This document shows, in pieces, positions 1,208-18,239 of a stretch of DNA of 47,545 nt (positions within the stretch are counted from its first letter, which is position 1; each line of letters begins with the position of its first letter). The notes below the pieces were generated by a model. The model searched no databases. It was not told the DNA's origin and worked only from the letters and a program-made list of their open reading frames with translations. The position numbers were made by a program, and so were the translations under genes. Source of the DNA: Pseudomonadota bacterium (GTDB lineage Bacteria; Pseudomonadota; Gammaproteobacteria; Burkholderiales; Rhodocyclaceae); the NCBI GenBank assembly GCA_040386295.1, contig JAZKFR010000038.1:4933-52477 (forward strand), in the 5' to 3' direction.

Positions 1208-4200
1208 CTAAACCGCACCTTCAGGCAAAGCTCTTGGCTCAATCAAATTACCGAGCACTTCAAAGGTGATCTGCCAAGCATGCATTTGCGACTTGCCGCT
1301 GACGGTGTCACTGAACGGCCAGGGGATTGGCGCCGAATGCGAGAAGTGGCTTCCTTTGCCCGATCCCGCACCGGTGTCTTTCACGGCAACTTTGGCGAAA
1401 TAAGCCGCCAGCGCAGCGCAAAATGCTTGTTGTTGCTCGTCACTCAATTCAAGCAGCCTCGGCTGCGGCAACTTGTCTGCGGCAAAGGCTTCTTTCAGCA
1501 TGACGAGGCTCTCTTCCAGATTGGCAAAAGTGACTTCTTCTAAAGTGGGCTGCTGGCTTCTGGGTCGGCTGCGCTGCTTTGCACCATGCTTGAACGAGTC
1601 GAGGAGCCTACTCTCAGGCATCAGCTTTTGTTTCTGACGGAGCGCTTTAACTTCTTCGGCGCTTGGCTTAGTCATACGCGCAATTTGCGCAGCATTTGGA
1701 AACAGCTCGGGGTTAGCCTCGATCAATGCGAAGAAAGGCCCTAGATGCGTATTGCTCAGCGCTTCTCGAACTTCTTTAGGCACTTCGTCCGCTGCGCGCA
1801 GTTCATCATCTTCCTCTTCTTCGGAAGGCGTCAGATGGGAGAGAATTTCCCCTGCTTGCAGCGCCAAGCCTTGCTTGAGGGCTTGTTCGTTACGCAGCAA
1901 GGTACTCCGCCCTGAGATTGAGCTAGCCGCCACGCTCGGCGCACCGGCTTGCGGTGGCTCTACGCCTTCAATACCAAGCTCTGTCAGGGTTGCTATTGCG
2001 GCGGCAAGACTTTCCTTCGGTGGATGTGTTTCAAAATGCCGCAGCAGCAGCGGAATTGAGGGCGCATTCGCAGGCTCTATCAATAAATTTTGCGCTATTC
2101 GATAGACGTTTCTGCACTGCTGAACAGTACGCTCAAACTCCGCCATCGATCGATTGAGTTCTCCCCAGCGCTCTAGAAGAGCGTCTATTTCGCCTTTCTG
2201 CAATGAGGCGATTGCACCCAAGGTTGCGCTCCCTAGGCTTTGCAATTCTCCTTGTAGTGCTCCAAACTGGCTGGTTACCTCCTCTGCTGTTGTGGTATCG
2301 GGCAGCGTTTTCTTTGTGGCGCTAAAAGCGCTGGTAACTGCCTGCGGAATTTTTGCTTGTGGTGGGTTTTGCAGCGGTCTGTTGCCAGGCATAACCGGAG
2401 GCAGCGGTAGTGCTAATTTTGCTGGCAGCGCAACGACAAACGCACGTACTGCATTCAATAGCGCGTCATCGACTTGCCGGTACGCTTCGAGCACGCTGGC
2501 AATTTTTACGCTGAGCTTTTTCTCCTCTGCTTGAACCTTGTTTTCTATTGAGCGGGTGGCGAGTGCTTCTTCAATTTTCTTTAGCGCAGCGCTTTGCGCA
2601 GCAACGTCGCTCAGCGCAACTGCTTTCAGTAAAGCTTGCCAGTGATCAGCCTTTAGATCGTCGGCAACGCCTTGTAAAGCCGTCCTCTCCAGCGTGTACT
2701 CTGCTGCCAGTAACGGTAACGGGAGACGTCTGTATTCGTCTGCGCCATCCCCTGTGCTGGTGCCCGGATCGAGTTTGATTTCAAGACGTGCTTGGGGGTT
2801 CTTGCCTTTACTCACGCCGACATTGACGACGAAGAACGGGTAGTTGCTGAGCGCCGTTTGCAGAGTTGCAGCTTGTTGCTCAAGCGCGCGCATTTTGGCT
2901 TCTTTCAGATGCGGAGCAAATTGCGTGAACGCATCATCAAGTACGAGCACGTCGAACCAGCCGGTATCGTCTTCAATACTTGCAATCTGGGCTTTAAGCG
3001 TTGAGGGAATGCTCTGTAGAAAATTATTGAGTTCGGCAGATTTAAGGTTCGCGCTTACGCCCACACGCAAAACAGAAAGACTACTCAATCCGCTAAGCTC
3101 AATTGCCTTAAGCTGCGCCACGCTCAGACCGCGTAAATCCAAGGTGCGGATTTGGCTTTTAAGCTCAGGCGTGAGGTGCTTCAGCAGGGTTGCCAATTCC
3201 TCTGGTTTGCACTCTTTTAGCGCCGACAGGTCTAGAAGCTGTCTTGCTGTATCGACAAATAAGCCGCAGTAGATTTGTTTCACACTGAGTTGGATAGAAA
3301 TTGGGCTGGTCGAAGTCTTTGCTGGCGCGCTCGACCCATGAACCGTGAGCGGTGTGTTCTTAACCGCCTTCTCCATTTGGCCAATCACCTCCAGAACGGA
3401 AGGACTAAGGGGTCTGTGCTTACCTAGAACACTAGCGACAAAAGGTGCGCGCTGCGCCTCTGGCAAGCGGTCTCGGAGCGAGTGCAAAAGCTTGCCGTAA
3501 GCAATCAAAGCTCCTTCACTACCCGACGCCATCATGCTCAATATCAGCGATGACTCAGACGGATTATCCGGTCGCATCAATAATTCGAGCGTCTCGTTGA
3601 GTCCCTGGGTGGGTAAGTATTCCAGCAATGAGATCAGCAGCTCGCCGTAAGCCTCGACAAAAGGTACTTTGTTATTACGCAGTGCATGTGCAGAACCTAT
3701 CGTGTTGCGATCAGCTGGCGCAAGTAAGAAGCGCGTTATGTACTCTTTACACGCTTCTAGCGGCAAGCCATGGATTAGAAATTTCAATAAGTCGCCGCAA
3801 ATCTTTACCACCTCGGGGTTTTTTCCAACCATCGCAGCAGAAAATGCTGTTATGACACGCTCATCTTTCAGGGTGAATAATATTGCTTCTATCCAACGCG
3901 CTCTGCTGGCTGCAGTAGGCTCCGTCCCAATCGCTGATTTCACTAACTCGCTGTAAGCGAGAATTGTCGGAATATCCTGCGCTTCAGCATGGGTAATGCG
4001 TCCAAACAGCGACTCTTCGGCAAGAACCAGAGCCAACATGTCGTGGTCTCTAGCTGCTTCATTGACGGCGTCTCTGGGTGGTAGAAGGTCGTTTATACTT
4101 ATTAAGAATTCGCGATAGCAATCAACGATCAGCGATTGCTGGCGCGAGATCCCCGTGAGGAGCGCTGGAGACGACAGTTCTTCGCACTTATCATCGTAGC

Positions 4201-4555
4201 GAACGAGTAAGCTACTTTTCACGTAGCTTAATCTGTCATTAATCGGGGTCAGCCCTAAGATAAAAAGCAACACAGAGGCATAACGATTAAATCTCTCAAC
4301 ATCACCTTGTTGCATCGCAGCATGCACCGCATAATCCCTTGTCTGCAACAAACCAAGCGTTTCTTTCGCCAGCCTTAGCGCGTAGATGCTGCCCAGCTCA
4401 TGACTGAGCTTTGGTAACGACCAACGCATAGATTCCGAAGACGTATGGCTTAAGTGATCAGCTGATTTTCTTATAACCTCATCATATTGGGCGGGATTGA
4501 GACAAGGATTTTTTACTTGGCCATTGGTAACTTGGTCCATTGATTTCCCCAACAA
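1208..4555 (-). CDS. Large orphan protein (1115 aa) with N-terminal ~50-aa helical repeats; no recognisable catalytic motif
   Basis: A single uninterrupted 3.3-kb ORF; every overlapping opposite-strand ORF is short. About six repeats of the pattern (A/C)Y(G/S)ELLxxLxxxLP fall near aa 92, 147, 201, 254, 303 and 353. No signal peptide or TM helix is evident. There is an acidic run (SEEEEDDE) and coiled-coil-like Ala/Gln/Leu-rich stretches. Confidence 0.8.
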   Translation of the reverse strand: MLGKSMDQVTNGQVKNPCLNPAQYDEVIRKSADHLSHTSSESMRWSLPKLSHELGSIYALRLAKETLGLLQTRDYAVHAAMQQGDVERFNRYASVLLFILGLTPINDRLSYVKSSLLVRYDDKCEELSSPALLTGISRQQSLIVDCYREFLISINDLLPPRDAVNEAARDHDMLALVLAEESLFGRITHAEAQDIPTILAYSELVKSAIGTEPTAASRARWIEAILFTLKDERVITAFSAAMVGKNPEVVKICGDLLKFLIHGLPLEACKEYITRFLLAPADRNTIGSAHALRNNKVPFVEAYGELLISLLEYLPTQGLNETLELLMRPDNPSESSLILSMMASGSEGALIAYGKLLHSLRDRLPEAQRAPFVASVLGKHRPLSPSVLEVIGQMEKAVKNTPLTVHGSSAPAKTSTSPISIQLSVKQIYCGLFVDTARQLLDLSALKECKPEELATLLKHLTPELKSQIRTLDLRGLSVAQLKAIELSGLSSLSVLRVGVSANLKSAELNNFLQSIPSTLKAQIASIEDDTGWFDVLVLDDAFTQFAPHLKEAKMRALEQQAATLQTALSNYPFFVVNVGVSKGKNPQARLEIKLDPGTSTGDGADEYRRLPLPLLAAEYTLERTALQGVADDLKADHWQALLKAVALSDVAAQSAALKKIEEALATRSIENKVQAEEKKLSVKIASVLEAYRQVDDALLNAVRAFVVALPAKLALPLPPVMPGNRPLQNPPQAKIPQAVTSAFSATKKTLPDTTTAEEVTSQFGALQGELQSLGSATLGAIASLQKGEIDALLERWGELNRSMAEFERTVQQCRNVYRIAQNLLIEPANAPSIPLLLRHFETHPPKESLAAAIATLTELGIEGVEPPQAGAPSVAASSISGRSTLLRNEQALKQGLALQAGEILSHLTPSEEEEDDELRAADEVPKEVREALSNTHLGPFFALIEANPELFPNAAQIARMTKPSAEEVKALRQKQKLMPESRLLDSFKHGAKQRSRPRSQQPTLEEVTFANLEESLVMLKEAFAADKLPQPRLLELSDEQQQAFCAALAAYFAKVAVKDTGAGSGKGSHFSHSAPIPWPFSDTVSGKSQMHAWQITFEVLGNLIEPRALPEGAV

Positions 4556-4708
4556 AGATCAAAATGACTACAAAGATTAGTGGTCTCTCAAAGCAAAAAG
4601 TTCATTAAATTTGTAATAAATTCGCTCCTTCCTCACTGAGGAACAGAGCTTAGCAGCCCCACGAACGCAGTCAGCCGAGATAATTTGAGCTATAACGCAC
4701 AATTCATT

Positions 4709-4737
4709 TTGACGAAGCAGACGAGACTCGTTATACT
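4709..4737 (+). promoter_or_regulatory. Sigma70-type promoter for tRNA-Phe
   Basis: TTGACG (4709-4714), a 17-nt spacer, then TATACT (4732-4737). A GC-rich discriminator (GCGCGTCC) follows, and the tRNA 5' end is at 4749. Confidence 0.6.
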
Positions 4738-4748
4738 GCGCGTCCTTT

Positions 4749-4824
<76 letters not shown>

Positions 4825-4833
4825 AATCAAAAA

Positions 4834-4861
4834 GCCCAACTAATCTCAGTTGGGCTTTTTG
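4834..4861 (+). terminator. Rho-independent terminator after tRNA-Phe
   Basis: Stem GCCCAACT (4834-4841), loop AATCTC, stem AGTTGGGC (4848-4855), followed by TTTTT. Confidence 0.8.
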
Positions 4862-5035
4862 CGTTGAGCATGCTTGCTACTCTGTCACCCGCTTCTCGCC
4901 AATCCAAAGCCCACCGCTTGTTAATACAGGCTACGGATGTCTTGCCGACAACGCCTCAGACACCGCCTACAAAAAGTAGCGCCTAAGCCCAAGAAAAAAC
5001 ATAGTTTGACGATTTGCTCAGCGCCAGCACTTGCG

Positions 5036-5064
5036 TTGCTGCAGCGGAAGCCAATGGGTAAAAT
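5036..5064 (+). promoter_or_regulatory. Candidate sigma70 promoter of rfaH
   Basis: TTGCTG (5036-5041), a 17-nt spacer, then TAAAAT (5059-5064). An AGGAG Shine-Dalgarno sits at 5085-5089. Confidence 0.45.
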
Positions 5065-5096
5065 CCTGCCAATCAAGGCAACCTTAGGAGATGGTG

Positions 5097-5609
5097 ATGC
5101 ATTGGTATCTCGCTTATACCAAACCCCGGCAAGAGAAATGCGCGCTGCAAAACTTAGAACGACAGGGTTATCAGTGTTATCTCCCAATGCTTGCTGCAGA
5201 GAAACTGCGTCAAGGCACGTTGATGATGCAAGATGAAGCGCTATTTCCACGCTATTTGTTCATCCGTCTGGGGCGCGACAATTCAGCAAAGAGCTGGGCA
5301 CCCATTCGTTCAACAAAAGGGGTCACCGGGCTAGTGAGTTTTGGGGCAGAGCCAGCGAAAGTCGACGATCGTTTAATTAAGCTGCTGAGAAAACAAGAAG
5401 CCGCAGGGCAAGCCGAACCGGAACGTCTGTTCAAACACGGCGAGCGGGTACGCTTAACCGAAGCACCTTTTGCCGGAATTGGGGGGGCTGGAATTGAAGC
5501 GGTCTATCAAATGGCCGATGGCGAGCGCCGAGCTATGGTGCTCATCGAACTCCTGAGCAAACCTGTTGCTGTACGGGTATCGCCAAGCAGCTTGCAAAAA
5601 ACAAGCTGA
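5097..5609 (+). CDS. rfaH: RfaH-type (NusG paralog) operon-specific transcription antiterminator
   Basis: The N-terminus MHWYLAYTKPRQEKCALQNLERQGYQCYLPM...EALFPRYLFIRL tracks E. coli RfaH (MQSWYLLYCKRGQ...EPLFPNYLFVEF, recalled from memory). A C-terminal KOW segment reads GERVRLTEAPFAG...ADGERRAMVLIELL. I prefer the start at ATG 5097 (7 nt after AGGAG) over the tracked 5091. Confidence 0.85.
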   Translation: MHWYLAYTKPRQEKCALQNLERQGYQCYLPMLAAEKLRQGTLMMQDEALFPRYLFIRLGRDNSAKSWAPIRSTKGVTGLVSFGAEPAKVDDRLIKLLRKQEAAGQAEPERLFKHGERVRLTEAPFAGIGGAGIEAVYQMADGERRAMVLIELLSKPVAVRVSPSSLQKTS

Positions 5610-5991
5610 AGCACTGCCAGTGTGGCCAACACGCAGGCAGAACACTCGACTAAGGCAGATAGCATGGTCTGCCTGCTGCGCCGGAGCAAGTCATAAAACA
5701 GCTCGCGACACGATGCAGAATCAGTAAAACAGCACGCAGGCACTCGCCCAAAAACCTAAAATTTCAGCTTCATTTCTTGCCTTAAGCCGCATCGCCAGCA
5801 TGCCAGCAGCACTGCGCGATTGCCCTGGCTGATCGGCAAAAACATTCCGTCTGCCTATGAAAATATGGGACAATTCCGCCCCGCTCGTTAGGCGAGCCAG
5901 CGCGCTGGCTACGCAATTTTGGCAGCCGCCTTTTGCCTACCACACCCCAGTTTTGTATCGTCCCCCGCGCTTGCTGATCGTGATACAGCAT

Positions 5992-6003
5992 GGCGGTAGC
6001 CTG
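5992..6003 (+). promoter_or_regulatory. ops (operon polarity suppressor) element, the RfaH recruitment site
   Basis: GGCGGTAGCCTG lies on the coding strand. It matches the GGCGGTAG core plus T11 of the E. coli ops consensus GGCGGTAGnnTG. It is 228 nt upstream of the first gene of the glycan operon. Confidence 0.75.
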
Positions 6004-6230
6004 CCAAAAACGATCAAATACACTTGGGCGCTTAAATATATTGGCGTCTAGCATCCGCCCTGGCACAGCAAAATATTGCCTCGAATGCCAAGTGCAATAC
6101 GCAATACGCAATGCGCACCTAGAGATTTAAGAACCCCCCATTTGCCAGGGGTTTTCTGCATTGCTTGTGCTACAGCCTGAACGCCAGAAGCCCGAACGCC
6201 GCATCAAATTCAAGCAGGAAATAATCGAAG

Positions 6231-8006
6231 TTGGAACACTCTAGCCAGTCGATCACAAGTTTGCTACGCCGCCTCTGGAGTCATGTTGGCAAGCGCCGTC
6301 GCGTCCAATTGTTTGCGCTGTTTATGCTCATAGCCTGCACCTCTTTTGTTGAGGTCGTCAGCATCGGCGCGGTTTTGCCCTTTTTGGGCTTGCTGACCGC
6401 GCCAGAACGCGTCTTTGCACACCCATTTGCGCAGTACATTATCCAGCCACTTGGGATAGAAAGCGCGCAAGCGCTATTACTGCCGATGACGGTTATTTTT
6501 GCTGCCATCGCCTTCCTGTCTGGTTTTATGCGCTTACTGCTGCTATGGGTACAGACACGCCTGAGTCACGCGATTGGTTCTGATTTCAGTTTGGGCATGT
6601 ATAGAAGGACGCTTTACCAGGCTTACTCCGTGCACCTTGCGCGCAACAGCAGCGAGGTGATTGCCGGAATATCTAATAAAGCTAAGGCAATTGTCGGCAG
6701 CACGCTACTGCCGTTGATGGTCATTATCAGTTCAGTCATGTTGCTGGGGACTATCTTTGTTGCCTTGCTTAGCCTAGAGCCGATGATCGCGCTCATCGCC
6801 TTTAGCGGCTTCGGGATTATCTACGCAGTGGTGATTCTGGCGACCAAAAGACGAATGCTGCGCTATAGCCAAGCAATCAGCCAAGGCCATAACGATGTAG
6901 TCAGGGTCTTGCAAGAGGGCTTAGGCGGCATCAGAGATGTCTTGATCGACGGCACACAGGACACTTATTGCAACATCTACCAGGCCGTCGATGCGCCCAT
7001 GCGTCAGGCAATGGCAAACGTCCAGATCATCAGCATCAGCCCACGGTACGGGGTAGAGGCTTTGGGCATGGTCTTGATTTCCGCCTTGGCTTACCTGCTC
7101 ACGCTCAGCAGCAGCGGAATCGCCAGCGCTATTCCGGTACTTGGCGCCTTGGCCATGGGCGCACAACGCATGCTGCCCATGCTGCAACAGGCTTACTCAA
7201 GCTGGGCGTCGATCCGTAGCGGACAAATATCGCTAAGCGACGCGCTGGATTTGATGGATCAGCCACTCCCCCCTGATGCAGATAAACCTTCTCCCGCTGC
7301 GCTGCGCTTCAACAACTCTATTGTGTTGCGCAATGTCTCGTTTACATACACTCCAGAAAAACCAGAAGTCCTTCGTTGTTTCGACATTTCGATCGCCAAA
7401 GGGTGTCGGCTTGGCATCGTCGGCAGTACTGGCAGCGGCAAAAGCACCTTTCTCGATATCTTCATGGGCTTATTGTCGCCAACACAGGGTGAGATGCTGG
7501 TAGATGGGCAAAAGATAAGCGCAGAGAACCGGCGGGCGTGGCAGGCGCACATTGCGCATGTCCCGCAAAGCATCTTTCTTTCAGACGCTAGCATTGCCGA
7601 AAACATCGCATTAGGCGTACCGAAAGCGGAAATCGATTGGACGCGGCTGCGTGCGGCTGCAGAAAAAGCCCAGATCGCCGATGTGATTGCAGCACTTGAA
7701 GATGGATACGACACCCGTGTCGGTGAACGCGGTGTTCGCTTATCGGGAGGGCAGCGGCAAAGAATTGGCATCGCCAGGGCGCTCTACAAAAATGCGGATG
7801 TCATTGTTTTTGACGAAGCAACCAGCGCCTTAGACAGCGATACCGAGCGCAAAGTGATGCAGGCAATCAACACGCTAGGCAATAACCTGACCCTCATCAT
7901 CGTTGCGCATCGCGTCAGTACGCTCAAAAATTGTGACCAAATCATTGAGATTGGTGCGGGCAGAGTTGAAAGAACGGGCACTTACGATGAAATCATCTGC
8001 CCCTGA
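6231..8006 (+). CDS. Fused TMD-NBD ABC exporter (MsbA/PglK-type half transporter)
   Basis: About 300 aa with 5-6 hydrophobic helices precede Walker A GSTGSGKST, signature LSGGQRQR and Walker B VIVFDEATSALD. The TTG start at 6231 is provisional. Confidence 0.85.
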   Translation: MEHSSQSITSLLRRLWSHVGKRRRVQLFALFMLIACTSFVEVVSIGAVLPFLGLLTAPERVFAHPFAQYIIQPLGIESAQALLLPMTVIFAAIAFLSGFMRLLLLWVQTRLSHAIGSDFSLGMYRRTLYQAYSVHLARNSSEVIAGISNKAKAIVGSTLLPLMVIISSVMLLGTIFVALLSLEPMIALIAFSGFGIIYAVVILATKRRMLRYSQAISQGHNDVVRVLQEGLGGIRDVLIDGTQDTYCNIYQAVDAPMRQAMANVQIISISPRYGVEALGMVLISALAYLLTLSSSGIASAIPVLGALAMGAQRMLPMLQQAYSSWASIRSGQISLSDALDLMDQPLPPDADKPSPAALRFNNSIVLRNVSFTYTPEKPEVLRCFDISIAKGCRLGIVGSTGSGKSTFLDIFMGLLSPTQGEMLVDGQKISAENRRAWQAHIAHVPQSIFLSDASIAENIALGVPKAEIDWTRLRAAAEKAQIADVIAALEDGYDTRVGERGVRLSGGQRQRIGIARALYKNADVIVFDEATSALDSDTERKVMQAINTLGNNLTLIIVAHRVSTLKNCDQIIEIGAGRVERTGTYDEIICP

Positions 8007-8027
8007 TCAGATGAGACACAGAGCGCA

Positions 8028-9899
8028 ATGAGCCTCATCAAACAACGCGTTCTCTGGGCTAACTACCCAGGAGAAGTGCTGGCAAAAGAATTGCTTCCCT
8101 GCTTCCCGAGCTTAGCGTCTACAACTTATCGCCTCGATCAATCCGAGGTCAGATTTCTGATGACCGCGCTATCCCCGCTTTACTCGCAAATGCTAGAGAC
8201 ACTGGCTAATCCGGTGGCCGCAGCCAGCGGAGTGGAGCCAGAGCAATGCAAAATAATTCTGCGCGAATCGGTCGTACTGATCACCTACACCCTGTTTGAC
8301 AGGATGTTTAGGCTGGCCAAAATTTTGGCGGATGAAAATTTAGAGGGCCTCGTCGTAGCGACGCAGCAAGGAATTTATCCCACGAGCAACGGCCAGCTAA
8401 GCGCTTTGACCGATGGATCTCCTGAGTTTAATCAATACCTGATTGTTCAGCTTGCCGCCTCAATCTGGGCAATCCCTGAAGTTCGTTTAGCCTCCCCCAT
8501 GCTGAATGACGTAAGAAACACTAAAAAAACAAATAATCTAAATTTTGCCCAGCCCGGACTGTGGCAGCGCGTACGCCGTAAATGGAGCAAGATCATCTCA
8601 AGGCAATTCGGCACCTTCCCCACTTTAAGGCTAGCCAATATTGACGATCCTTTGCTCGACGGTGGTCTTTATGCAGCAGGCCAGCTCTTATGGCTGGAAG
8701 ACCTGAGCCATGAGAACGACACGCAGAGAGACCACGCGCTTCGGAACACTCTGGCAGAGCAGCTCAAAGCAGGTTTTTTTAGTGTTTTGACTGATCAGAT
8801 TCTTTCTCGGCTTGGCAAGCTCGCGCCATTCGTGCCGGCACGAGTCGCTGCCATATATTCCAAGCTATTGTCAGAATTGATTCCGCCAGAACGGCTAGAG
8901 GGAATAGCCGCTTACCCAAAATATGAAGCAAAGCTGGCCTCACTTTCTGCGCCTGCACTCTTCTTTTGTGCGATGCCGGGCGGGCAAGATATCCACTGGA
9001 TTGCCGCAGCAAAAAAATTACGTATCCCCGTCGTTGGCGTGCAACATGGTGCCCACTATGGGTTTTCCAGCCAGCCCTGTTTCCTAGATACCGAGTTCGC
9101 TTATTGCGATAAATTTGTTACTTGGGGATGGTCGGATTTTCCGCAACATCCTTTGTCGTCAAAGATCAGGGCAATAGCCTTACCTAGCCCCTGGCTAAGC
9201 GAACGAGCAAGTCTGTGGAAGCAAATCCAGACTTTGCGTCAGGGTCAAGGACAGAGACAGCGCCGCCCGCATGATGTCTTGCTGATGTCTGATCGGATAC
9301 AAGTCTTCCCGCCCTCAGTGAGCACCTTGCGCATGTCGAGGGTAGATTTCCTACCTGAAATAAATCGCACACTCCAAGCGCTGGTCAGCGAGTTAGCGCA
9401 GCGCAAGATTCGTCTTCTGAATAAGCCTTTTAACTACACATCGAGAGATATACAGCGCCAAGTGCTTGATGGCTTGTTGCACGAATTTCCAGAGCACTAC
9501 GCTGAATACGAAAAATTAGACAAAGGCTTGACGCAAAATTTGCTTGAGCGTGCTTGGCTGGTTCTGTGGGATGAGCCTGGCACAGGGTTTTTTGAGTGCT
9601 TAGTCGGCGGCATTCCGTGCATGGTTTGCTGGGAAAGAATGACTTCCTGCGAAGAAGATTACGCTAGACCCTATTTCCAGAAACTTGAAGATGTTGGGCT
9701 GCTGCATTCCTCGCCCACGAGCCTCGCCAAAGCAATCCAGTGCTTCCTAAATGAGCCAGAAGCTTGGCTGAATGACCGTGAGAGAAACACGGTCATTCGC
9801 CAGGTGACGGATCGTTTCGCGCAGACAGACAAAGCTTGGAACATCGCTTGGAAAGCAGCGCTAAAGACGCTTGCAAGCGACGGTTTGATTGGCCCTTAA
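8028..9899 (+). CDS. Orphan 623-aa protein, possible GT-B-like transferase
   Basis: A long ORF starting 21 nt after the ABC gene. The C-terminal half has a Rossmann-like beta-alpha pattern (IPVVGVQHGAHYG, VLLMSD, LVLWDEPGTGFFECLVGGIPCMV). I can name no diagnostic motif. Confidence 0.55.
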   Translation: MSLIKQRVLWANYPGEVLAKELLPCFPSLASTTYRLDQSEVRFLMTALSPLYSQMLETLANPVAAASGVEPEQCKIILRESVVLITYTLFDRMFRLAKILADENLEGLVVATQQGIYPTSNGQLSALTDGSPEFNQYLIVQLAASIWAIPEVRLASPMLNDVRNTKKTNNLNFAQPGLWQRVRRKWSKIISRQFGTFPTLRLANIDDPLLDGGLYAAGQLLWLEDLSHENDTQRDHALRNTLAEQLKAGFFSVLTDQILSRLGKLAPFVPARVAAIYSKLLSELIPPERLEGIAAYPKYEAKLASLSAPALFFCAMPGGQDIHWIAAAKKLRIPVVGVQHGAHYGFSSQPCFLDTEFAYCDKFVTWGWSDFPQHPLSSKIRAIALPSPWLSERASLWKQIQTLRQGQGQRQRRPHDVLLMSDRIQVFPPSVSTLRMSRVDFLPEINRTLQALVSELAQRKIRLLNKPFNYTSRDIQRQVLDGLLHEFPEHYAEYEKLDKGLTQNLLERAWLVLWDEPGTGFFECLVGGIPCMVCWERMTSCEEDYARPYFQKLEDVGLLHSSPTSLAKAIQCFLNEPEAWLNDRERNTVIRQVTDRFAQTDKAWNIAWKAALKTLASDGLIGP

Positions 9900-10010
9900 T
9901 TCATGCCCAATGATCACGCTCTGGAAGCGGTTCAGCCACCTTACGTTGGTGCGAAATACCGGCATTGTCCTGCTGATTCGTCAGCACACTTGAGCGAAAA
10001 GAAGTAGCAG

Positions 10011-10354
10011 GTGCTGTTTAGTTCTTACGAATTTCTATTGCTCTTTCTGCCTGCAGCGTGGCTTGCGTATGGCGCAATGCGCAGGCAAAACCACAACGCC
10101 GCTCTGGGTGTGTGTTATGCGCATTTTCGATTATTTTTTACGCCTGGTGGAGCAGCGCCTTTCTGCTGCTACTGGCAGGCTCGATCGTGTTCAACTTCAC
10201 TGTCGGCGGCTTCCTCTCAAACACAGCGAGTCAGCACGCCGAGTACAAGAAGACGGCTCTTATCGTTGGTATTGCCGCCAATTTGGCGCTCTTAGCCTAT
10301 TTCAAGTATGCAGATTTTTTTGCGCGCAACATAAGTTGCAGGAACTCCGCGTGA
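10011..10354 (+). pseudogene. MBOAT (AlgI/DltB-type O-acyltransferase) remnant: frameshifted and truncated after about 105 codons
   Basis: Frame 0 starts with a classic MBOAT N-terminus (MLFSSYEFLLLFLP...). Frame 2 continues it (SIIFYAWWSSAFLLLLAGSIVFNF...LALLAYFKYADFF) and then stops. Intact MBOATs are about 470 aa. Confidence 0.7.
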
Positions 10355-10668
10355 TCCAACGATACTGTGTAGAAAACAAACTGAGATGTGTTTTTCTATC
10401 GTGTCCTGTCCATGCGTCTGCCTATATTGACCTGCAGAAGCAGATGCAGAAGTTTTTCGCTGGGTTCCCTCAGTTTGATCAACATTTTCACCTTGATCTT
10501 TCAGCTCATGAATTCCCAAACACATGGATGGGCGACACGATAGATCACATTGAGCCAGAACGAAAAGCAGAGACAACGAAGCTTTATTGGGCAAATTTTT
10601 CCCAGTACGTGCAGGATTGAAACTCAGGCTGGCCGAACTGTTTAACTGAGGTATTTTTGGAGGATGCT

Positions 10669-11346
10669 ATGGTAAAAGTTTTTATTGGATATGACCCTCG
10701 GGAAGCTGTGGCATACCATGTTTGCGCGAACAGCATTATTCGCCACGCTAGCGTCCCAATATCACTGACGCCCCTTGCCCTAAACAATCTAAAAAGCTAT
10801 CGAGAAACCCATACGGACGGCAGCAACCAGTTTATCTACAGCCGCTTCATGGTGCCTTATCTCGAGGATTATCAAGGCTGGGCCATTTTTATGGACGGCG
10901 ATATGTTGCTACGTTCTGATATCGCTGAGCTGTGGTCTCTACGCGACGAATCAAAAGCGCTTATGTGCGTTCATCATGACTACAAGACTAAAGCCGTGCA
11001 GAAATATCTAGGCGCCCAGAATCAAAACTACCCGCGCAAAAACTGGTCTAGTGTTGTTCTATGGAATTGTGGGCATCCGGCTAATCGGGTAGTTACCCCA
11101 GAGTTCATTGAGAACGCTACGGGAGCGCAGCTGCACCGTTTTACCTGGCTTACGGACGAACTAATTGGGGAGCTGCCAAAGGTCTGGAACTGGCTGCCCG
11201 ACGAGTTTGGCGCGAACCCTGACGCAAAGCTCTTGCACTGGACTTTAGGGACGCCTTGTTTTCACGAGTATGCTGCAGCCCCCATGGCCGAGGAATGGCA
11301 TCGCGAGGCGCTGCTCGCAAACTACTCACTACAATTCAAGGCATGA
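10669..11346 (+). CDS. GT-A fold (GT8-like) glycosyltransferase
   Basis: VFIGYDPRE...YSRFMVP...IFMDGDML gives a DxD motif in a nucleotide-diphospho-sugar transferase layout. The start is set at ATG 10669, 5 nt after GGAGGA. Confidence 0.55.
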   Translation: MVKVFIGYDPREAVAYHVCANSIIRHASVPISLTPLALNNLKSYRETHTDGSNQFIYSRFMVPYLEDYQGWAIFMDGDMLLRSDIAELWSLRDESKALMCVHHDYKTKAVQKYLGAQNQNYPRKNWSSVVLWNCGHPANRVVTPEFIENATGAQLHRFTWLTDELIGELPKVWNWLPDEFGANPDAKLLHWTLGTPCFHEYAAAPMAEEWHREALLANYSLQFKA

Positions 11347-11404
11347 AGCAGCATCTGTATCAATACTCAGCTTGGACGATCGAATGATCAGGTGCTTGCA
11401 ATAA

Positions 11405-12106
11405 ATGTCCTTTAGAGCGAAAAAAGTGATTGCGCTGATCCCCGCCAGGGGCGGCTCAAAAGGAGTTCACCGCAAGAATTTGCGCCTTATCCAGGGGCGC
11501 CCTCTTGTCGCGCACAGCCTTCAGGCTGCACTCGATTGCACGCTAATTGATCAGGTTGTTCTCTCATCGGACGACGCGGAAATTTTGGCAGTCGGGCGCC
11601 ATCTAGGCGTGCAGCTGCACCAACGCTCGCCCGCAGCAGCCAGTGATAGCGCGACGGCCAATGAGGTGATGCATGATTTTTTAGCCGGGCTGCCACGCGA
11701 TGTGCTTGCGGCTGACCCGTTCGTGGTTTTTTTGCAGCCGACTTCCCCGCTCCGCACGGGCAAAGATATTGATGCTGCATTCGCTTTGCTTGAGTCGAGC
11801 CAGGCCGAGCTGTGTATTAGTGTTGTTGAAGTCAACAAAACGCCGTTCAAGTCATTCACGCTGGGCGCAACGGGCTGTCTTCAAGCCTTGTTTGACGAGA
11901 GCATGACGAATGCTAATCGACAGACTTTGCCGAAAATTTTTTACCCTAACGGGGCAATTTATATTTTCCCGCTGCACGCTTTCGTCAACAAGGGAGGATT
12001 CCCTTCAAATGGTGCAATTCCTTACGTGATGCCCGAGTCGCGTAGTATCGATGTCGATTCGGAAGAAGACTTACAAGCTATTGAGAGACTATGTCCAGAG
12101 AAATGA
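11405..12106 (+). CDS. neuA: CMP-nonulosonic acid synthetase (acylneuraminate cytidylyltransferase), copy 1
   Basis: IALIPARGGSKGVHRKNL and LQPTSPLR motifs of the CTP_transf_3 / NeuA family; 233 aa. Confidence 0.8.
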   Translation: MSFRAKKVIALIPARGGSKGVHRKNLRLIQGRPLVAHSLQAALDCTLIDQVVLSSDDAEILAVGRHLGVQLHQRSPAAASDSATANEVMHDFLAGLPRDVLAADPFVVFLQPTSPLRTGKDIDAAFALLESSQAELCISVVEVNKTPFKSFTLGATGCLQALFDESMTNANRQTLPKIFYPNGAIYIFPLHAFVNKGGFPSNGAIPYVMPESRSIDVDSEEDLQAIERLCPEK

Positions 12107-13134
12107 TCATTCAAGGGCGGGCGATTGGTGCCGAACACCCGCCTATCGTGATTGCCGAAATCGGCATCAATCACGAGGGTTCGCTCGCAACAGCCATCGC
12201 CATGGCCGATGCTGCAATCGACGCTGGCGCCGAAATCATTAAGCATCAAACGCATATCGTCGACGACGAAATGTCTGAAGAAGCGAAGTCCGTGATCCCC
12301 GGTAATGCCGATGTTTCGATTCACGAAATCATGGCACGTTGCGCGCTATCGGAGGCTGACGAAAAAACTTTGATGCAGCACGTGCAGGCGCGTGCTGCCA
12401 TTTTCATCAGTACGCCTTTCTCTCGAGCGGCAGCTGAACGGCTGATTCGCTTCGATATCCCAGCCTTTAAAATTGGCTCGGGCGAATGCAATAATTACCC
12501 CTTGATTCGCCATATCGCACGTGCTGGCAAACCCGTGATCATCAGTACCGGGATGAACAGTATCGAGTCGATTGCACCATCGGTCGCTATTCTGCGGCAG
12601 GCAGGCGTCCCCTACGCCTTGCTTCACTGCACCAACGTCTACCCGACGCCCGCCCATTTGGTGCGCTTAGGCGCGATGGTGAAATTGCAAGAGGCATTCC
12701 CTGACGCCATCGTTGGCCTTTCGGATCACACCGTTGGCAACTACACCTGTCTCGGCGCGGTGGCGCTTGGCGCATCCATTCTTGAGCGCCATTTTACGGA
12801 TCGCATGGATCGTCCGGGACCAGACATCGTTTGTTCGATGGATCCGGGTGCACTGAAGACGCTGATAGAGGGATCGAAGGTGATCTGGTCGGCGCGTGGC
12901 GGAGATAAAACAGCGATTGCAGCTGAAGCACCAACCATCGCGTTTGCCTTTGCCTCGGTGGTCGCTATTCGAGACATTGCTGCGGGTGAGTTATTGAGCG
13001 AGGAAAATATCTGGGTCAAGCGACCCGGTGGCGGTGATTACCTGGCTAAAGACTACGAGTCGCTCCTGGGAAAAACGGCGGTAAGCAATATCCGCAGCGG
13101 TTTCCAGTTGAGGAAAGCAGACGTATTGGTATGA
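12091..13134 (+). CDS. neuB: Nonulosonic acid synthase (NeuB family), copy 1
   Basis: Motifs IAEIGINHEG, KHQTH, STPFS, KIGSGE, STGM, LLHCTNVYPTP, GLSDHT and ERHFT, plus a C-terminal SAF domain. An alternative start at 12103 would give an ATGA overlap with neuA. Confidence 0.85.
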   Translation: MSREMIIQGRAIGAEHPPIVIAEIGINHEGSLATAIAMADAAIDAGAEIIKHQTHIVDDEMSEEAKSVIPGNADVSIHEIMARCALSEADEKTLMQHVQARAAIFISTPFSRAAAERLIRFDIPAFKIGSGECNNYPLIRHIARAGKPVIISTGMNSIESIAPSVAILRQAGVPYALLHCTNVYPTPAHLVRLGAMVKLQEAFPDAIVGLSDHTVGNYTCLGAVALGASILERHFTDRMDRPGPDIVCSMDPGALKTLIEGSKVIWSARGGDKTAIAAEAPTIAFAFASVVAIRDIAAGELLSEENIWVKRPGGGDYLAKDYESLLGKTAVSNIRSGFQLRKADVLV

Positions 13135-14267
13135 GCGATCAAGCTATCCGTAAGATCGTTTTTCTGACGGGAACCCGCGCTGATTTCGGCAAACTCAAGT
13201 CTTTGATGCTGCAGTTACAGGCAGACGCCTGCTTCGAGGTCCATGTCTTTGTTACTGGGATGCACATGCTGTCCAAGTACGGCTCAACCTGGGAGGAAGT
13301 GCGTAAAGCCGGCCTGAACAATCTTTACTGCTTCATCAATCAGAACGAACATGACTCGATGGATCATATCCTGGCCAAAACAATTGCCGGATTGTCCGAT
13401 TATGTGAAAGAAATGTCCCCCGACCTCATCGTCGTGCACGGTGATCGTCTAGAGGCGCTGGCAGGCGCGATTGTCGGCGCGTTTAACAACATTCGCGTTG
13501 CCCACATCGAAGGGGGCGAGGTGTCGGGCACGATTGACGAAGTCATTCGGCATTCAATCTCAAAGATGTCGCATCTCCACTTCGTTGCGAATGATCAAGC
13601 GAAGCGACGGTTGATCCAGCTGGGCGAGCGGGATGAGACAATCCACGTGATTGGTTCTCCCGATGTTGATGTAATGAATTCTTCTGCCTTGCCCTCGCTG
13701 GAGGAAGTGCAGCGCTATTACGAATTTAATTTTGCCGAATACGCCATTCTGATGTTCCACCCGGTAACGACCGAGCTGCGTCTGATCCGCAATCAGATAG
13801 CAACACTCGTCGATGTGATTCTCGAGTCGGGACAAAACTTCGTTGTTCTGTATCCGAACAACGATCATGGTACGGATATTATTTTGGACGAATACGAGCG
13901 GCTACGTGACTGTGCGCGGATTGCCCTCTACCCGTCTATGCGCTTTGAGTATTTCCTAACGCTGCTCAAGCGCGCTCGTTACATGATCGGCAACTCAAGC
14001 GCGGGCATCCGTGAAGCACCCCACTTTGGCGTTCCTACCATCAATTTAGGTTCAAGGCAGCACAGACGAGTGCAAACGCCTTCTGTGTTGGATGTCACGA
14101 TCACGCATGAGGCTATTCGAGACGCCATTGCGCGCGCGCCCTCGGCACCGAGAACACCGCAGATTCTGTTTGGCGATGGCAACAGTGCTTCTGCTTTTCA
14201 CCAAGTACTGCGCGCCAAAGAGACCTGGCTTAGGGAAATTCAGAAGCATTTTGTCGATTACATGTAA
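13131..14267 (+). CDS. neuC: Hydrolysing NDP-HexNAc 2-epimerase (NeuC family), copy 1
   Basis: Motifs FLTGTRADFGKL, HGDRLEALAGA, HIEGGEVSGTIDE, RHSISKMSHLHF and GNSSAGIREAP. The start forms an ATGA overlap with neuB. Confidence 0.85.
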   Translation: MSDQAIRKIVFLTGTRADFGKLKSLMLQLQADACFEVHVFVTGMHMLSKYGSTWEEVRKAGLNNLYCFINQNEHDSMDHILAKTIAGLSDYVKEMSPDLIVVHGDRLEALAGAIVGAFNNIRVAHIEGGEVSGTIDEVIRHSISKMSHLHFVANDQAKRRLIQLGERDETIHVIGSPDVDVMNSSALPSLEEVQRYYEFNFAEYAILMFHPVTTELRLIRNQIATLVDVILESGQNFVVLYPNNDHGTDIILDEYERLRDCARIALYPSMRFEYFLTLLKRARYMIGNSSAGIREAPHFGVPTINLGSRQHRRVQTPSVLDVTITHEAIRDAIARAPSAPRTPQILFGDGNSASAFHQVLRAKETWLREIQKHFVDYM

Positions 14268-14305
14268 GCAAAAAGCAGCACTTTGCTGACCAGCAAATTT
14301 TTTGG

Positions 14306-15532
14306 ATGAACTCATTGATTATGTCTACTGCATATTTTGGCCTGCCTGAAAAGGTGGTGTTCTGCAAATCCTGCGTTATCTCCAATCAACGCCCGAACTC
14401 AACGGTTGAGTTCAAGCACACGCAAGACGAACGAAAAGCCACGATTGGTTTTGGTGACGACGGCATTTGTGACGCTTGCCGATACGGCAAAGAAAAGGCA
14501 GCCAACATCAACTGGACTGAGCGGGAGGATCGCTTGGTTGCCCTGCTCGACAAGCACCGTAAAAATGCGGGCGGATACGACGTGATTGTGCCAGGCAGCG
14601 GGGGCAAAGACAGCGCATACACCTCGCATATATTGAAGTACCGCTACGGCATGAACCCGCTGACCGTCACCTGGGCGCCCCACAAGTACACGGAAATTGG
14701 CTGGAAGAATTTTGAGAATTGGATGCACGTTGGGGGCTTGGACAACATTTTGTTCACGCCGAACGGTCGGCTTCACCGTTACTTGACGCGGATCGCCTTT
14801 CTCAACCTACTTCATCCGTTTCAACCCTTTATTGTCGGCCAGAGAATCATTGGCCCGCTGATGGCGGCAAAGTTCGGTGTTCCCTTGGTCATGTACGGCG
14901 AAAATCAGGCCGAGTATGGCAACAACCCCGATGACAACTATGTTCCGACCATGGACAGGAAGTTTTTCTCTGTGACTAAGGCCGAGGATATCGTTCTCGG
15001 CGGCAGGTCGATCGGCGAGATTGTCGGCACAGGCGAATTCAAGCTGAATGATTTTGCCCCTTATATTCCGCCCAGCGCGGACTATCTTGAGCGCCAGGGC
15101 GTCGAGGTGCACTACCTTGGTTACTACCTGCCGTGGGATCCACAAGAATGCTACTACTACGCTGCCGAACACACCGGCTTCCAAGCCAACTCGGAGCGTA
15201 CGGAAGGAACTTACTCGAAGTACAGCAGCATTGATGATCGCGTCGACATGTTCCACTACTACACAACGCTGATTAAATTTGGTATTGGGCGCGCCACCTA
15301 CGACGCAGCTCAAGAAATCCGCAATGGCAAGATCACGCGCGAAGAAGGGGAGCAGTTGGTGCGTCGTTACGACCAAGAGTTTCCGAAGAAATACTTCCAA
15401 GATTTTCTCGACTACGTCTCTCTAAGCGAAGAGGAATTTCACACGACCGTGGATAAATTTCGTTCGCCACACCTGTGGGAACAACTCAACGGTACGTGGC
15501 AACTAAAGCATACGGTTTGGCAACCTAAGTGA
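14306..15532 (+). CDS. N-acetyl sugar amidotransferase (WbuX/PseA/WbpG family)
   Basis: An N-terminal CxxC...CxxC pair (CKSC, CDAC) is followed by the PP-loop SGGKDS. It lies immediately upstream of HisF/HisH paralogs. Confidence 0.8.
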   Translation: MNSLIMSTAYFGLPEKVVFCKSCVISNQRPNSTVEFKHTQDERKATIGFGDDGICDACRYGKEKAANINWTEREDRLVALLDKHRKNAGGYDVIVPGSGGKDSAYTSHILKYRYGMNPLTVTWAPHKYTEIGWKNFENWMHVGGLDNILFTPNGRLHRYLTRIAFLNLLHPFQPFIVGQRIIGPLMAAKFGVPLVMYGENQAEYGNNPDDNYVPTMDRKFFSVTKAEDIVLGGRSIGEIVGTGEFKLNDFAPYIPPSADYLERQGVEVHYLGYYLPWDPQECYYYAAEHTGFQANSERTEGTYSKYSSIDDRVDMFHYYTTLIKFGIGRATYDAAQEIRNGKITREEGEQLVRRYDQEFPKKYFQDFLDYVSLSEEEFHTTVDKFRSPHLWEQLNGTWQLKHTVWQPK

Positions 15533-16362
15533 GTATGCAGCGTCAATCCAATCAAGCCGATCAATCCAGTCAGCCCAGCAAACCCAGTACGCAGCGCAAC
15601 GTCAGGCTAATCGCACGCCTAGACATTAAGGGATCGAATCTGATCAAAGGGATCCATCTCGAGGGTCTGCGCGTGATTGGCTCAGCGCAGGAGCACGCGC
15701 TCAAGTATTACCTACAAGGCGCAGACGAACTGATCTACATGGATTGTGTTGCCAGTCTGTATGGGCGCAATCATCTTGCTGAGATCATCAGTCAGGCCGC
15801 GCGTGACATCTTCGTGCCAATGACCGTCGGTGGCGGCATTCGTTCGGTAGAAGATGCAACGCAAATTTTGCGCGCTGGCGCCGACAAAGTGGCGGTCAAC
15901 ACCGCTGCAGTCGCGAATCCAGACTTGATTAGCCGCATCGCCCAGCGCTTCGGCAGCCAATGTATGGTGCTGTCAGTTGAAGCCAAACAGATTGCCCCGG
16001 GTTGCTGGGAGGCTTACGCCGACAATGGCCGCGAGCGTAGCGGCAGGGACGTTGTGGCCTGGGTGAAAGAGGCAGTTGCGCTAGGAGCAGGCGAAGTCCT
16101 CATCACGTCGATTGATCGTGAGGGAACACGCAAAGGCTTCGATGTTGCCCTCGTGCAGGCGGTCACTGCGGCGGTCAGCGTACCGGTGATTGCGAGTGGC
16201 GGCATGGGGCGGCTAGAAGACTTCTCGGATGTGGTGAGTAACGGGGGCGCCGATGCTGTTGCGATGGCGGACATCCTGCATTACAACCGCGCATCGATTG
16301 GTGAAATTCGCGAGCAGGCTTGTCGCTCTGGCATCGCAGTGAGGCATTATGTGCGCCGCTAA
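15529..16362 (+). CDS. HisF-like cyclase subunit paralog (WbuZ-type)
   Basis: RLIARLDIKG...VGGGIRS...VLITSIDREGT...IASGG, a (beta/alpha)8 HisF signature. The GTG start overlaps the upstream stop. Confidence 0.8.
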   Translation: MSMQRQSNQADQSSQPSKPSTQRNVRLIARLDIKGSNLIKGIHLEGLRVIGSAQEHALKYYLQGADELIYMDCVASLYGRNHLAEIISQAARDIFVPMTVGGGIRSVEDATQILRAGADKVAVNTAAVANPDLISRIAQRFGSQCMVLSVEAKQIAPGCWEAYADNGRERSGRDVVAWVKEAVALGAGEVLITSIDREGTRKGFDVALVQAVTAAVSVPVIASGGMGRLEDFSDVVSNGGADAVAMADILHYNRASIGEIREQACRSGIAVRHYVRR

Positions 16363-16993
16363 AGTCGCCCTGATTGACTACGGCATGGGAAATCTACTCA
16401 GTGTCCAGCGCGGCTTGGAGCGCGTGGGTGCCGAGGTTCACGTCACTTCCGAGCCCGAGCACATTCTGTCTGCCGATAGAGTGGTTCTGCCCGGTGTCGG
16501 CGCTTTCCCTGACGCTATGGACGAACTTGAGCGGCGTGGACTGGTGCCAGTGATGCGCACTCTGGCGAAGCAAGGAACGCCCTTGCTCGGGATCTGTCTC
16601 GGCATGCAAATTCTCTTCGACGTAGGACTTGAGTTTGGCGAAACAGCGGGACTTGGCCTGATTCCCGGCCGCGTTCTGCCGATGCCTAAAGTATCCGCCC
16701 AGGGTGATCTGCTGAAAATTCCGCACATCGGCTGGAACTCGCTACATCCGGCAGGCGACAGCGATTGGCAGACGGGCGTACTCGCCGAACTTGAATCGGG
16801 CGAAGCGGTTTATTTTGTGCACTCTTTCATGGCGCAGCCGCAAGAAGCGCGGTTTAGCATTGCCCACTGTTTTTACGGCGGGATTCCGATTGCTGCGGTC
16901 GTCGGCAGAAATAAAGTGCTTGGCTGCCAATTTCATCCAGAGAAAAGTGGTGAAGTGGGTCTGCGCGTTTTACGCGGATTTCTGTCGCTTTGA
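16349..16993 (+). CDS. HisH-like class I glutamine amidotransferase paralog (WbuY-type)
   Basis: VALIDYGMGNL, LPGVGAF, GICLGMQ (nucleophile Cys) and FHPEKS. Confidence 0.8.
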   Translation: MCAAKVALIDYGMGNLLSVQRGLERVGAEVHVTSEPEHILSADRVVLPGVGAFPDAMDELERRGLVPVMRTLAKQGTPLLGICLGMQILFDVGLEFGETAGLGLIPGRVLPMPKVSAQGDLLKIPHIGWNSLHPAGDSDWQTGVLAELESGEAVYFVHSFMAQPQEARFSIAHCFYGGIPIAAVVGRNKVLGCQFHPEKSGEVGLRVLRGFLSL

Positions 16994-17024
16994 GCAACCA
17001 CGATTCGATTGGAGCAGGCTGACG

Positions 17025-18191
17025 GTGTCACCTTACTTAAAAAAATTGGCCGCTTTCTGCTCGTATTTTTGGCACGCTAAAAAGACTTGGTCTTGGCCGA
17101 AGAAAAGCGACATTCTTATTTTTGATGCTTGCGGAGAAGCGCTGCTGCGCGAATATCTAAGCGACTGGTCGATTGAGGTTTTGCCTGTTCGTGGCGAACG
17201 GATCAATGTGCCACTCATGCTCGCCAGTTTGTTTGTTTCCGGGCGCAGGTCAGAAGCTTATTTTGATCTCTACGTGCGCAAGGTTGCGCCCAAATTGATC
17301 ATCACGTTTATCGACAACACTCCCGCCTTTTATCGACTCACAGTGCGGCATCCTGGGGTGAAAACGATGTTCATACAGAACGGCTGGCGTAGTCGTTATG
17401 GCGACGTTTTCGAGTTATTGACAGAGCCCGCGCCAAGCCAGAAAAACGCACTGGCGGTTGACTACATGATGTGTTTCGGCTCTGCGATAGGCGCCCATTT
17501 CCAGCGTTACATCGCAGGCGAAGTTATGGCGATCGGCGCGCTACGCAACAACCGTCAGCCACAGCTCGCCAGCAAAGCGGCCGGGACAATCGCTTTTATT
17601 TCGCAATGGAGTCGACATGGCGTGCAGCTAGCGGGCAAAACTTATTCTCAGGATGCGTTTATGGGTACAGCAGATCGCTGCATTCTCGCTTTCCTGTCCA
17701 AGTACGCAGCCGAGCACAAAAAAAAGCTGTATATCATTCCGCGCACGCACGTCGGCAGCGTCGATCGCCGCGATGAGACAAGCTACTATTCGGCCTTACT
17801 CGGCAAAGCCTGTTCTTTCCTAGAATACGACACGCCAGGATCGTCCTATCAAGCGATCGACGTTGCCGAAGTCGTTGTCGGGGTTGATTCAACCCTGGTC
17901 TATGAAACCATCGCGCGTGGGAACAAGGCAGCGGTGTTCGCCATCAGAAGTGCATTGATGGGCGTCGAGGGCTTTGAATATGGTTGGCCGGCGCCGCTCG
18001 CGGCAGAGGGCGCGTTCTGGACTAACTCACCATCGCCTGAGCGATTTAGAGCGGTTTTAGATTATTTATTCTCGACCAGCGAAGCGCAGTGGCGCGCTGA
18101 ACTTAAGCGTGTTTCGTTTGAGCAACTCATGGTTTTTGATCCTGATAACACAATCCTAAAAACAACCCTAACTCAGGTGTTACGCAGCTGA
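17025..18191 (+). CDS. Orphan 388-aa protein, possible GT-B-like (NulO?) transferase
   Basis: The tracked ORF (from 16791) overlaps hisH-like by 200 nt and has no early ATG. The in-frame GTG at 17025, 10 nt after GGAG, is the likely start. The layout looks Rossmann-like (LIITFIDN, IAFISQW, LYIIPRTH, VVVGVDSTLVYE). Confidence 0.55.
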   Translation: MSPYLKKLAAFCSYFWHAKKTWSWPKKSDILIFDACGEALLREYLSDWSIEVLPVRGERINVPLMLASLFVSGRRSEAYFDLYVRKVAPKLIITFIDNTPAFYRLTVRHPGVKTMFIQNGWRSRYGDVFELLTEPAPSQKNALAVDYMMCFGSAIGAHFQRYIAGEVMAIGALRNNRQPQLASKAAGTIAFISQWSRHGVQLAGKTYSQDAFMGTADRCILAFLSKYAAEHKKKLYIIPRTHVGSVDRRDETSYYSALLGKACSFLEYDTPGSSYQAIDVAEVVVGVDSTLVYETIARGNKAAVFAIRSALMGVEGFEYGWPAPLAAEGAFWTNSPSPERFRAVLDYLFSTSEAQWRAELKRVSFEQLMVFDPDNTILKTTLTQVLRS

Positions 18192-18239
18192 ATCGTCAAT
18201 CTAAAAATCGAAAAATCAAAGTATCGAGGTAGGGAAAAA

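Follow-up and report, generated by a model that had tools for sequence, protein, structure and literature searches.

Does an rfaH gene that lies beside a canonical operon polarity suppressor (ops) element serve the one long polysaccharide operon that follows it? This question is raised by a stretch of 47,545 nucleotides (nt) of DNA from a member of the Rhodocyclaceae (Burkholderiales), hereafter the window, which corresponds to positions 4,933-52,477 (forward strand) of contig JAZKFR010000038.1 in assembly GCA_040386295.1 (2.39 Mb, 188 contigs, 95.8% complete, GC content 53.6%). The answer that we consider highly probable, largely on comparative grounds, is that the locus is a cis-linked RfaH/ops antitermination module. 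The features on which this answer is built are the following.

5036-5064, + strand: putative rfaH promoter, with -35 TTGCTG (5036-5041), a 17-nt spacer and -10 TAAAAT (5059-5064)
5097-5609, + strand: rfaH, 170 amino acids (aa), five of them inserted in the KOW domain
5866-5874, + strand: predicted operon promoter of the extended -10 type, TG (5866-5867) plus GACAAT (5869-5874), with a start predicted at about 5880-5883
5883-5897, + strand: 5' stem-loop, GCUCGU-UAG-GCGAGC (-9.4 kcal/mol, z -1.8)
5972-5990, + strand: pre-ops hairpin, with a 5-bp stem (TGCTG/CAGCA) and a 9-nt loop, ending 1 nt before G1 of ops
5992-6003, + strand: ops, GGCGGTAGCCTG, an exact match to the consensus GGCGGTAGnnTG, with a predicted pause at T6002 (ops U11)
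6231-39501, + strand: target operon, about 34 same-strand genes over 33 kb, for a surface polysaccharide

An RfaH gene followed by a canonical ops

The ops is on the coding-sense (non-template) strand of the operon, 382 nt past the rfaH stop and 228 nt before the first operon gene (6231), within an rfaH-to-operon spacer of 621 nt, and it has both the T11-G12 pause dinucleotide and G2. An initial annotation of this DNA had already reported an ops at this place and on this strand, 228 nt before the first gene, and the coordinates, the distances and the exactness of the match to the consensus are all correct. It had also named the gene directly upstream as rfaH, which holds, since the open reading frame (ORF) 5097-5609 passes two NCBIfam equivalog cut-offs, those of TIGR01955 (163.6 bits, cut-off 144.5) and NF006534 (136 bits, cut-off 124). 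The same protein falls below the cut-offs of the models for NusG (44.6 vs 135.7), UpxY (62.4 vs 100) and LoaP (33.4 vs 125). Among solved structures, E. coli RfaH chains are the top match (E 5e-21, against 2e-10 for NusG), and the protein aligns end to end with chains 5OND and 2OUG, while its identity to betaproteobacterial homologues is 50-76%. An AlphaFold2 model (mean predicted local distance difference test score, pLDDT, of 80.5) has the two-domain layout of an NGN and a KOW fold. Upstream of the gene, an AGGAG box is found 8 nt 5' of the ATG (5097), and the putative promoter is part of a TTGCyn-N17/18-TAAAAT/TACAAT pattern that aligns upstream of rfaH in seven of the eight closer loci, L033 retaining the -10 alone.

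Conservation of the rfaH/ops linkage

The comparison covered 61 related genomes and, separately, 28 betaproteobacterial rfaH loci (50-71% identity) from GTDB species genomes, the titles of which include Noviherbaspirillum, Nitrosomonas, Comamonadaceae, Azoarcus, Rhodoferax, Polaromonas and Ferrovum. RfaH-like genes are sporadic: 12 of the 61 related genomes have one and the others have NusG only. Five loci in these relatives, that is, L002 (G036, 76% identity), L003 (G035), L004 (G044), L006 (G026) and L008 (G001), carry an exact GGCGGTAG some 60-200 nt 3' of rfaH on the same strand. The exact 12-mer ops is found 83-990 nt past the rfaH stop, again on the same strand, in 13 of the 28 betaproteobacterial loci, when chance would provide 0.0012 per locus within 1 kb downstream (binomial P ~ 6e-31). 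Further loci depart from this arrangement: L031 has an ops with one mismatch (position 12), L037 has a degenerate copy short of one G, and in L058 the ops is upstream on the opposite strand, with an operon that is divergent from rfaH. Across 17 aligned loci, ops positions 1-9 (G1-C9) and T11 are invariant and the flanks diverge. At the level of whole genomes, GCNNGGCGGTAGCNTG is found in nine of the 12 RfaH-bearing genomes and in 12 of the 49 RfaH-less ones (Fisher P = 0.0018). A layout that is common to so many related betaproteobacteria is, judging from its conservation, almost certainly functional. A second rfaH copy was seen in G036 (L060 3001-3498; G036:C7:187206-187697), with 65% identity and convergent with its neighbours. 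No ops lies nearer to it than about 3 kb, and this paralogue may act in trans.

Conservation extends to a small hairpin immediately before ops. In the 17 loci, the bases that would form its stem can pair in 86% of cells, a share that falls to 22-47% once the 3' partner is shifted, and compensatory changes are found in two of the five pairs (e.g. T-A, C-G, T·G), although this covariation is modest in that 20 of 500 shuffles reached it. The minimum free energy fold agrees with the pairing, and the hairpin is likely to be real. A covariance model of 48 nt (R1), built from 16 such hairpin+ops units, finds one strong match in the window genome (G000; 63.7 bits, E 1e-14), the next being at 17.4 bits. 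In the search of the 61 relatives, R1 matched seven genomes, each exactly once, and in six of them (G000, G035, G036, G044, G026 and G050) this match adjoins an rfaH gene or fragment. The seventh (G004; 54 bits; L067, G004:C19:130-177, minus strand) is found at the end of a contig, downstream of a pepN-like gene. Matters of observation are thus the sequence features and their conservation, the fact that they occur together with rfaH, and one R1 copy per genome, and a single copy in the genome suggests one dedicated target. The idea of a dedicated regulator-target pairing, which the initial annotation had put forward, therefore has comparative support, from the 13 of 28 loci, the five relatives and the one R1 copy that stands beside rfaH in six of seven genomes.

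Predicted operon promoter and leader

The initial annotation had assumed a leader of about 620 nt and had seen no convincing promoter in 5610-5990. A search by conservation, in which the regions from the rfaH stop to ops of 12 loci were aligned, found one block, TGnNAnnAT, in leaders that are otherwise poorly alignable. Its TG and final T are invariant (T87, G88, T95) and the A at hexamer position 2 (A91) is conserved in at least 90%. In the window, this block is 118 nt upstream of ops and about 260 nt past the rfaH stop, and in short-leader relatives it is the sole conserved element between rfaH and ops. Extended -10 promoters are marked by just such a pattern of invariance, from which we infer a start near 5881. 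This start would put ops at about +112 in a 5' untranslated region of about 350 nt, so that the transcribed leader is probably little more than half as long as had been thought, and a candidate promoter can after all be identified, at 5866-5874, by its conservation in 12 loci.

A promoter downstream of ops was considered and rejected, as comparison of the window with L031, the sole relative that shares the first gene (an ABC exporter), found no conservation after ops. In five relatives (L042, L047, L049, L050, L051), the first gene, which encodes a MarR_EPS protein (TIGR04176), begins 15-22 nt past the end of ops, therefore leaving no space there for a promoter. A simple consensus scan of 4700-6400 for sigma-70 promoters and terminators found only the promoter of a tRNA gene and two minus-strand hairpins; it flagged neither of the two promoters predicted here, and it found no terminator-like structure on the + strand between rfaH and ops.

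The predicted transcript would open with the 5' stem-loop, at the position of which relatives have palindromes of other sequence (GTTCAAAATTGAAC, GTTCGTCCGTTGAAC), and this structure may protect the 5' end of the mRNA or act as an operator. A structured, riboswitch-like leader was rejected, the predicted leader (5881-6240) being no stabler than shuffled sequence (z 0.07). A weak terminator-like hairpin was noted at 6133-6160, in the part of the leader that follows ops (AACCCC...GGGGTT followed by TTCTGCATT); it is no stabler than shuffled sequence (z -0.8) and could be an attenuator that is read through by RfaH-modified polymerase. As for translation, no purine-rich Shine-Dalgarno sequence is visible before the first gene in the five relatives with MarR_EPS (e.g. 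L047 732-768), which fits recruitment of the ribosome to the first gene by RfaH. In two other relatives, the stretch after ops (L002 2190-2600 in G036; L003 2180-2520 in G035) resembles MarR_EPS but appears to be interrupted by stops and reduced to short ORFs, as the remnant of a pseudogene might be.

Probable target operon and flanking genes

Family scans of the operon found a fused MsbA/PglK-like ABC exporter, a transferase of the LIC12162 family, two sets of nonulosonic-acid genes (NeuB synthase, NeuC epimerase and cytidylyltransferase), a WbuX plus HisF/HisH amidotransferase module, aminotransferases, dehydratases and epimerases, glycosyltransferases of families GT2, GT4 and GT8, methyltransferases, a deacetylase and FemAB-like proteins. 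The initial annotation had described a 33-kb operon with almost no intergenic space, which is right in that no gap exceeds 58 nt, apart from a patch of 757 nt (9900-10656). Nowhere else does the operon lack an intact gene over a long stretch; the patch contains overlapping short ORFs in three frames, one of which (10063-10620) has no Pfam match; it could conceivably harbour an internal promoter. Throughout the operon, internal promoter-like sites are no commoner than in shuffled sequence. Terminator-like sites are fewer than expected in 6000-25000 (13 vs 23.2) and somewhat more numerous in 25000-41500 (27 vs 19.9, standard deviation 4.7), and all this would fit a single long transcription unit. 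Of the terminator-like sites inside the operon, the strongest is a GC-rich palindrome (10 bp, with a short T-run) in the first neuB-like gene (12375-12398, + strand).

On either side of the module, the window contains two long ORFs that were not assigned to families: one of 1115 aa (1208-4555, - strand), without Pfam or NCBIfam match and divergent from a tRNA-Phe gene (4749-4824), and one of 720 aa (43074-45236, + strand), without Pfam match.

Proposed mechanism

The order of events that we propose is as follows. The rfaH gene would be transcribed from its own sigma-70-type promoter (5036-5064), and the extended -10 (5866-5874) would start the polysaccharide transcript near 5881. After the stem-loop at 5883-5897, this transcript would carry a JUMPstart-like unit, made of the pre-ops hairpin and ops, at about +92 to +123. 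RNA polymerase would pause at ops U11 (6002), by analogy with E. coli, and the non-template GGCGGTAG that is exposed during the pause would recruit RfaH made from the adjacent gene. The hairpin, 12-13 nt behind the paused 3' end, could prolong the pause. Once bound, RfaH would exclude NusG and Rho-dependent termination and suppress pausing over all 33 kb and about 34 genes of the operon. Where transcription starts, that it pauses, that RfaH loads and that distal genes are affected are all predictions drawn from the sequence.

A more far-reaching proposal, which we offer tentatively and ourselves regard as rather doubtful, is that the RfaH-loading unit is more than the 12-nt ops by itself and is an ancient composite. 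A hairpin with a 5-bp stem and a 9-nt loop, placed one base before ops, would have kept its geometry between gamma- and betaproteobacteria without sequence similarity, its stem lying 12-13 nt behind the paused 3' end as in a his-type pause hairpin, and RfaH in this clade would read the invariant GGCGGTAGC with a rebuilt pocket (H20N, a variable R73 and, in place of N70, a new invariant Arg).

Several observations weigh against a cis-linked RfaH/ops module, and they concern the protein, the DNA and the target alike. In E. coli RfaH, the side chains that touch ops are K10, H20, R23 and R73 (Zuber et al. 2018, PMC5995543). Alignment to the E. coli protein indicates that K10, invariant in the clade, and R23, which is R or Q in the clade, are retained in the window, whereas the H20 position is an invariant N, in the window as in the rest of the clade, and the R73 position is K in the window and K, R, Q, L, M or P across the clade, even where the ops is canonical. 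The clade has thus kept ops while two of the four side chains known to contact it have changed; Q24 and T72 are invariant, as is an Arg at the N70 position. The retention of K10, R23, Q24 and T72 counts, for its part, in favour of the module. Of the determinants of autoinhibition given by Wang et al. (2020, PMC7593976), namely E48, I93 and F130, the former two are retained and the last is replaced conservatively by Y, which likewise speaks for the module. However, a 15-nt in-frame tandem duplication (AGIGG|AGIEA) with a run of seven G, at 5472-5501 in the part of the gene that encodes the KOW domain, has inserted five residues (AGIGG) that none of 26 aligned homologues has (n = 27 in total). 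The insertion is at the position of E. coli F126, four residues before the F130 equivalent, and may disturb autoinhibition; the seven-G tract could also slip. AlphaFold2, from a 27-sequence alignment, draws the KOW domain as beta (pLDDT 52-80) and not as an alpha-hairpin, a single predicted state that would be compatible with fold switching.

On the side of the DNA, neither the 12-mer GGCGGTAGnnTG (7 exact copies against 5.9 expected) nor the 8-mer GGCGGTAG (87 against 95) is enriched in the genome, and a longer ops pattern is about as frequent as its reversed-pattern control across the 61 related genomes. The initial annotation had suggested a genome search for further ops sites; six other exact 12-mers do exist, but all are intragenic, within ORFs of 152-744 aa, 5992-6003 being the sole one outside a long ORF. 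In the window, sites with at most one mismatch to ops number 5 against 2.4 expected, and the chance of an ops in the leader on the + strand is P ~ 8e-4. The significance of ops hence stems from its position (in a leader, extragenic and conserved at orthologous loci) and not from its count. The one other exact GGCGGTAGnnTG of the window (39665-39676, - strand), inside a convergent gene for a major facilitator superfamily (MFS) transporter, was judged to be a chance match, as it has T at position 9 instead of the invariant C and no R1 match. The pre-ops hairpin taken alone is not stabler than shuffled sequence (z +0.28), so that its support is comparative only. In G004, RfaH was not detected though an R1 element is present, which is either an orphan or the result of an assembly gap. 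Finally, the operon has a GC content of 50-58%, near the genome mean and unlike the AT-rich xenogeneic targets of RfaH in E. coli, and H-NS counter-silencing is therefore less obviously needed than in E. coli.

Alternative explanations

The alternative that deserves most attention, though we think it unlikely, is that rfaH shares a transcription unit with the glycan genes, all being transcribed from the rfaH promoter and rfaH being the first gene (cf. UpxY, TaA); the TGnNAnnAT block would then not be a promoter. NusG paralogues that reside in their target operons are well known, no + strand terminator-like structure separates rfaH from ops, and rfaH in the short-leader relatives stops only about 25-30 nt before the block. 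Yet the invariance of TG, of A at position 2 and of T at position 6 is what an extended -10 would leave, in the window 260 nt without conservation separate rfaH from the block, and the L058 operon, being divergent from rfaH, must have a promoter of its own. Read-through from rfaH and a separate operon promoter are in any case not mutually exclusive and can coexist. It is less probable still that the pair is decaying, the KOW duplication having inactivated or deregulated RfaH in the window. AGIGG is indeed absent from the 26 homologues and is placed where F126 and F130 pack in autoinhibited E. coli RfaH, and the operon has its 757-nt patch without an intact gene, but the rfaH frame is intact, as are the remaining operon genes, and promoter, hairpin and ops are intact too and score as high as in relatives.

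Two further alternatives are less probable again. That the conserved block is functional independently of RfaH, as an operator for MarR_EPS (TIGR04176) or as a cis-acting RNA, has in its favour the presence of MarR_EPS after ops in L004, L042, L047 and L049-L051, and the G004 block without detectable RfaH. We nevertheless give it very little weight: the invariant core is exactly the nine ops bases known to bind RfaH (PMC5995543), the block co-occurs with rfaH and adjoins it, and it scores 63.7 bits in a genome without MarR_EPS. A MarR_EPS operator is indeed ruled out for the window genome, where the gene is absent and of which the window contains no trace. As for a chance match, it would agree with genome counts that equal expectation and with the second exact match in the window, inside the MFS transporter gene; it is already refuted by position-specific conservation over more than 18 loci (P ~ 6e-31), and its probability is negligible.

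Comparison with known systems

Among the closest known parallels to the module that we favour is E. coli RfaH with its ops/JUMPstart targets (waa, rfb, kps, hly, tra). The regulator is of the same family, the ops consensus is identical, including T11-G12, and in both cases, by prediction in the window, a long polysaccharide operon carries ops in its 5' leader. The JUMPstart of E. coli (39 nt), located at 100% identity between galF and rfbB, folds likewise, one nucleotide separating ops from a hairpin with a 5-bp stem and a 9-nt loop, although the sequence of the window hairpin is unrelated to it. The window differs from E. coli in that rfaH adjoins what appears to be its single target, in that this target is not AT-rich, and in the H20 to N and R73 to K changes. 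In E. coli, rfaH is a monocistronic gene that is unlinked to its targets and serves several operons, according to Wang et al. (PMC7593976), and to that extent the contrast drawn in the initial annotation stands.

The Rfam family for JUMPstart (RF01707; gathering threshold 35 bits) has no match in the window, nor any at E ≤ 10 on 5550-6300, and Rfam scans of the leader returned tRNA-Phe and noise only. Its best matches in the genome itself reach 16.9 bits and are elsewhere than ops, while an E. coli control is over the cut-off. The window element would thus work like a JUMPstart while falling outside RF01707 as modelled, and a single model of the R1 type can, on present comparisons, serve to recognise polysaccharide operons that are candidates for RfaH dependence in genomes of the Burkholderiales type, for which the JUMPstart model of Rfam fails.

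Other NusG paralogues reside in operons, such as UpxY in Bacteroides, TaA in Myxococcus, LoaP in Bacillus and those of the ActX/TraB type on plasmids, usually as the first operon gene and with other recruitment signals. Like them, the window protein is a specialised NusG paralogue in cis with a long operon that is expected to be antiterminated. Unlike the UpxY, LoaP and TaA type, which belong to other subfamilies, it is RfaH proper, below the cut-offs for UpxY and LoaP, with a predicted promoter of its own and a canonical ops.

A linked pair is not as unusual as the initial annotation had implied, since RfaH clusters CL2-CL8 have already been reported as neighbours of envelope-polysaccharide genes, CL4 neighbouring a helix-turn-helix regulator, in a study whose available text leaves the recruitment mode open (Wang et al. 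2020; mBio 11:e02717-20, PMC7593976). The window resembles these clusters, especially CL4, in that rfaH is beside polysaccharide genes and in that a helix-turn-helix regulator (MarR_EPS, TIGR04176) adjoins rfaH in many relatives. The linked rfaH/polysaccharide layout is therefore already known and not a new design. That study, as far as its available text goes, dealt with gene neighbourhoods only, whereas here a canonical ops, a promoter and a hairpin are placed between rfaH and the cluster. Specifically, what the comparisons point to in addition is (i) that many betaproteobacteria have, in the interval from rfaH to the cluster, a canonical ops, a conserved candidate promoter and a hairpin like that of JUMPstart, (ii) one element per genome and (iii) an ops that is kept despite changed contacts.

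While the general picture of NusG paralogues is unchanged, this would be a compact RfaH system, with one regulator and one target, in which promoter, 5' stem-loop, hairpin and ops fit within about 125 nt. A search of the accessible literature found no paper linking RfaH or JUMPstart with betaproteobacteria, and a lineage without prior RfaH study could be a natural test bed for understanding (i) to what extent parts of JUMPstart other than ops count, (ii) how ops is read without H20 and R73, and (iii) whether an insertion in the KOW domain alters autoinhibition.

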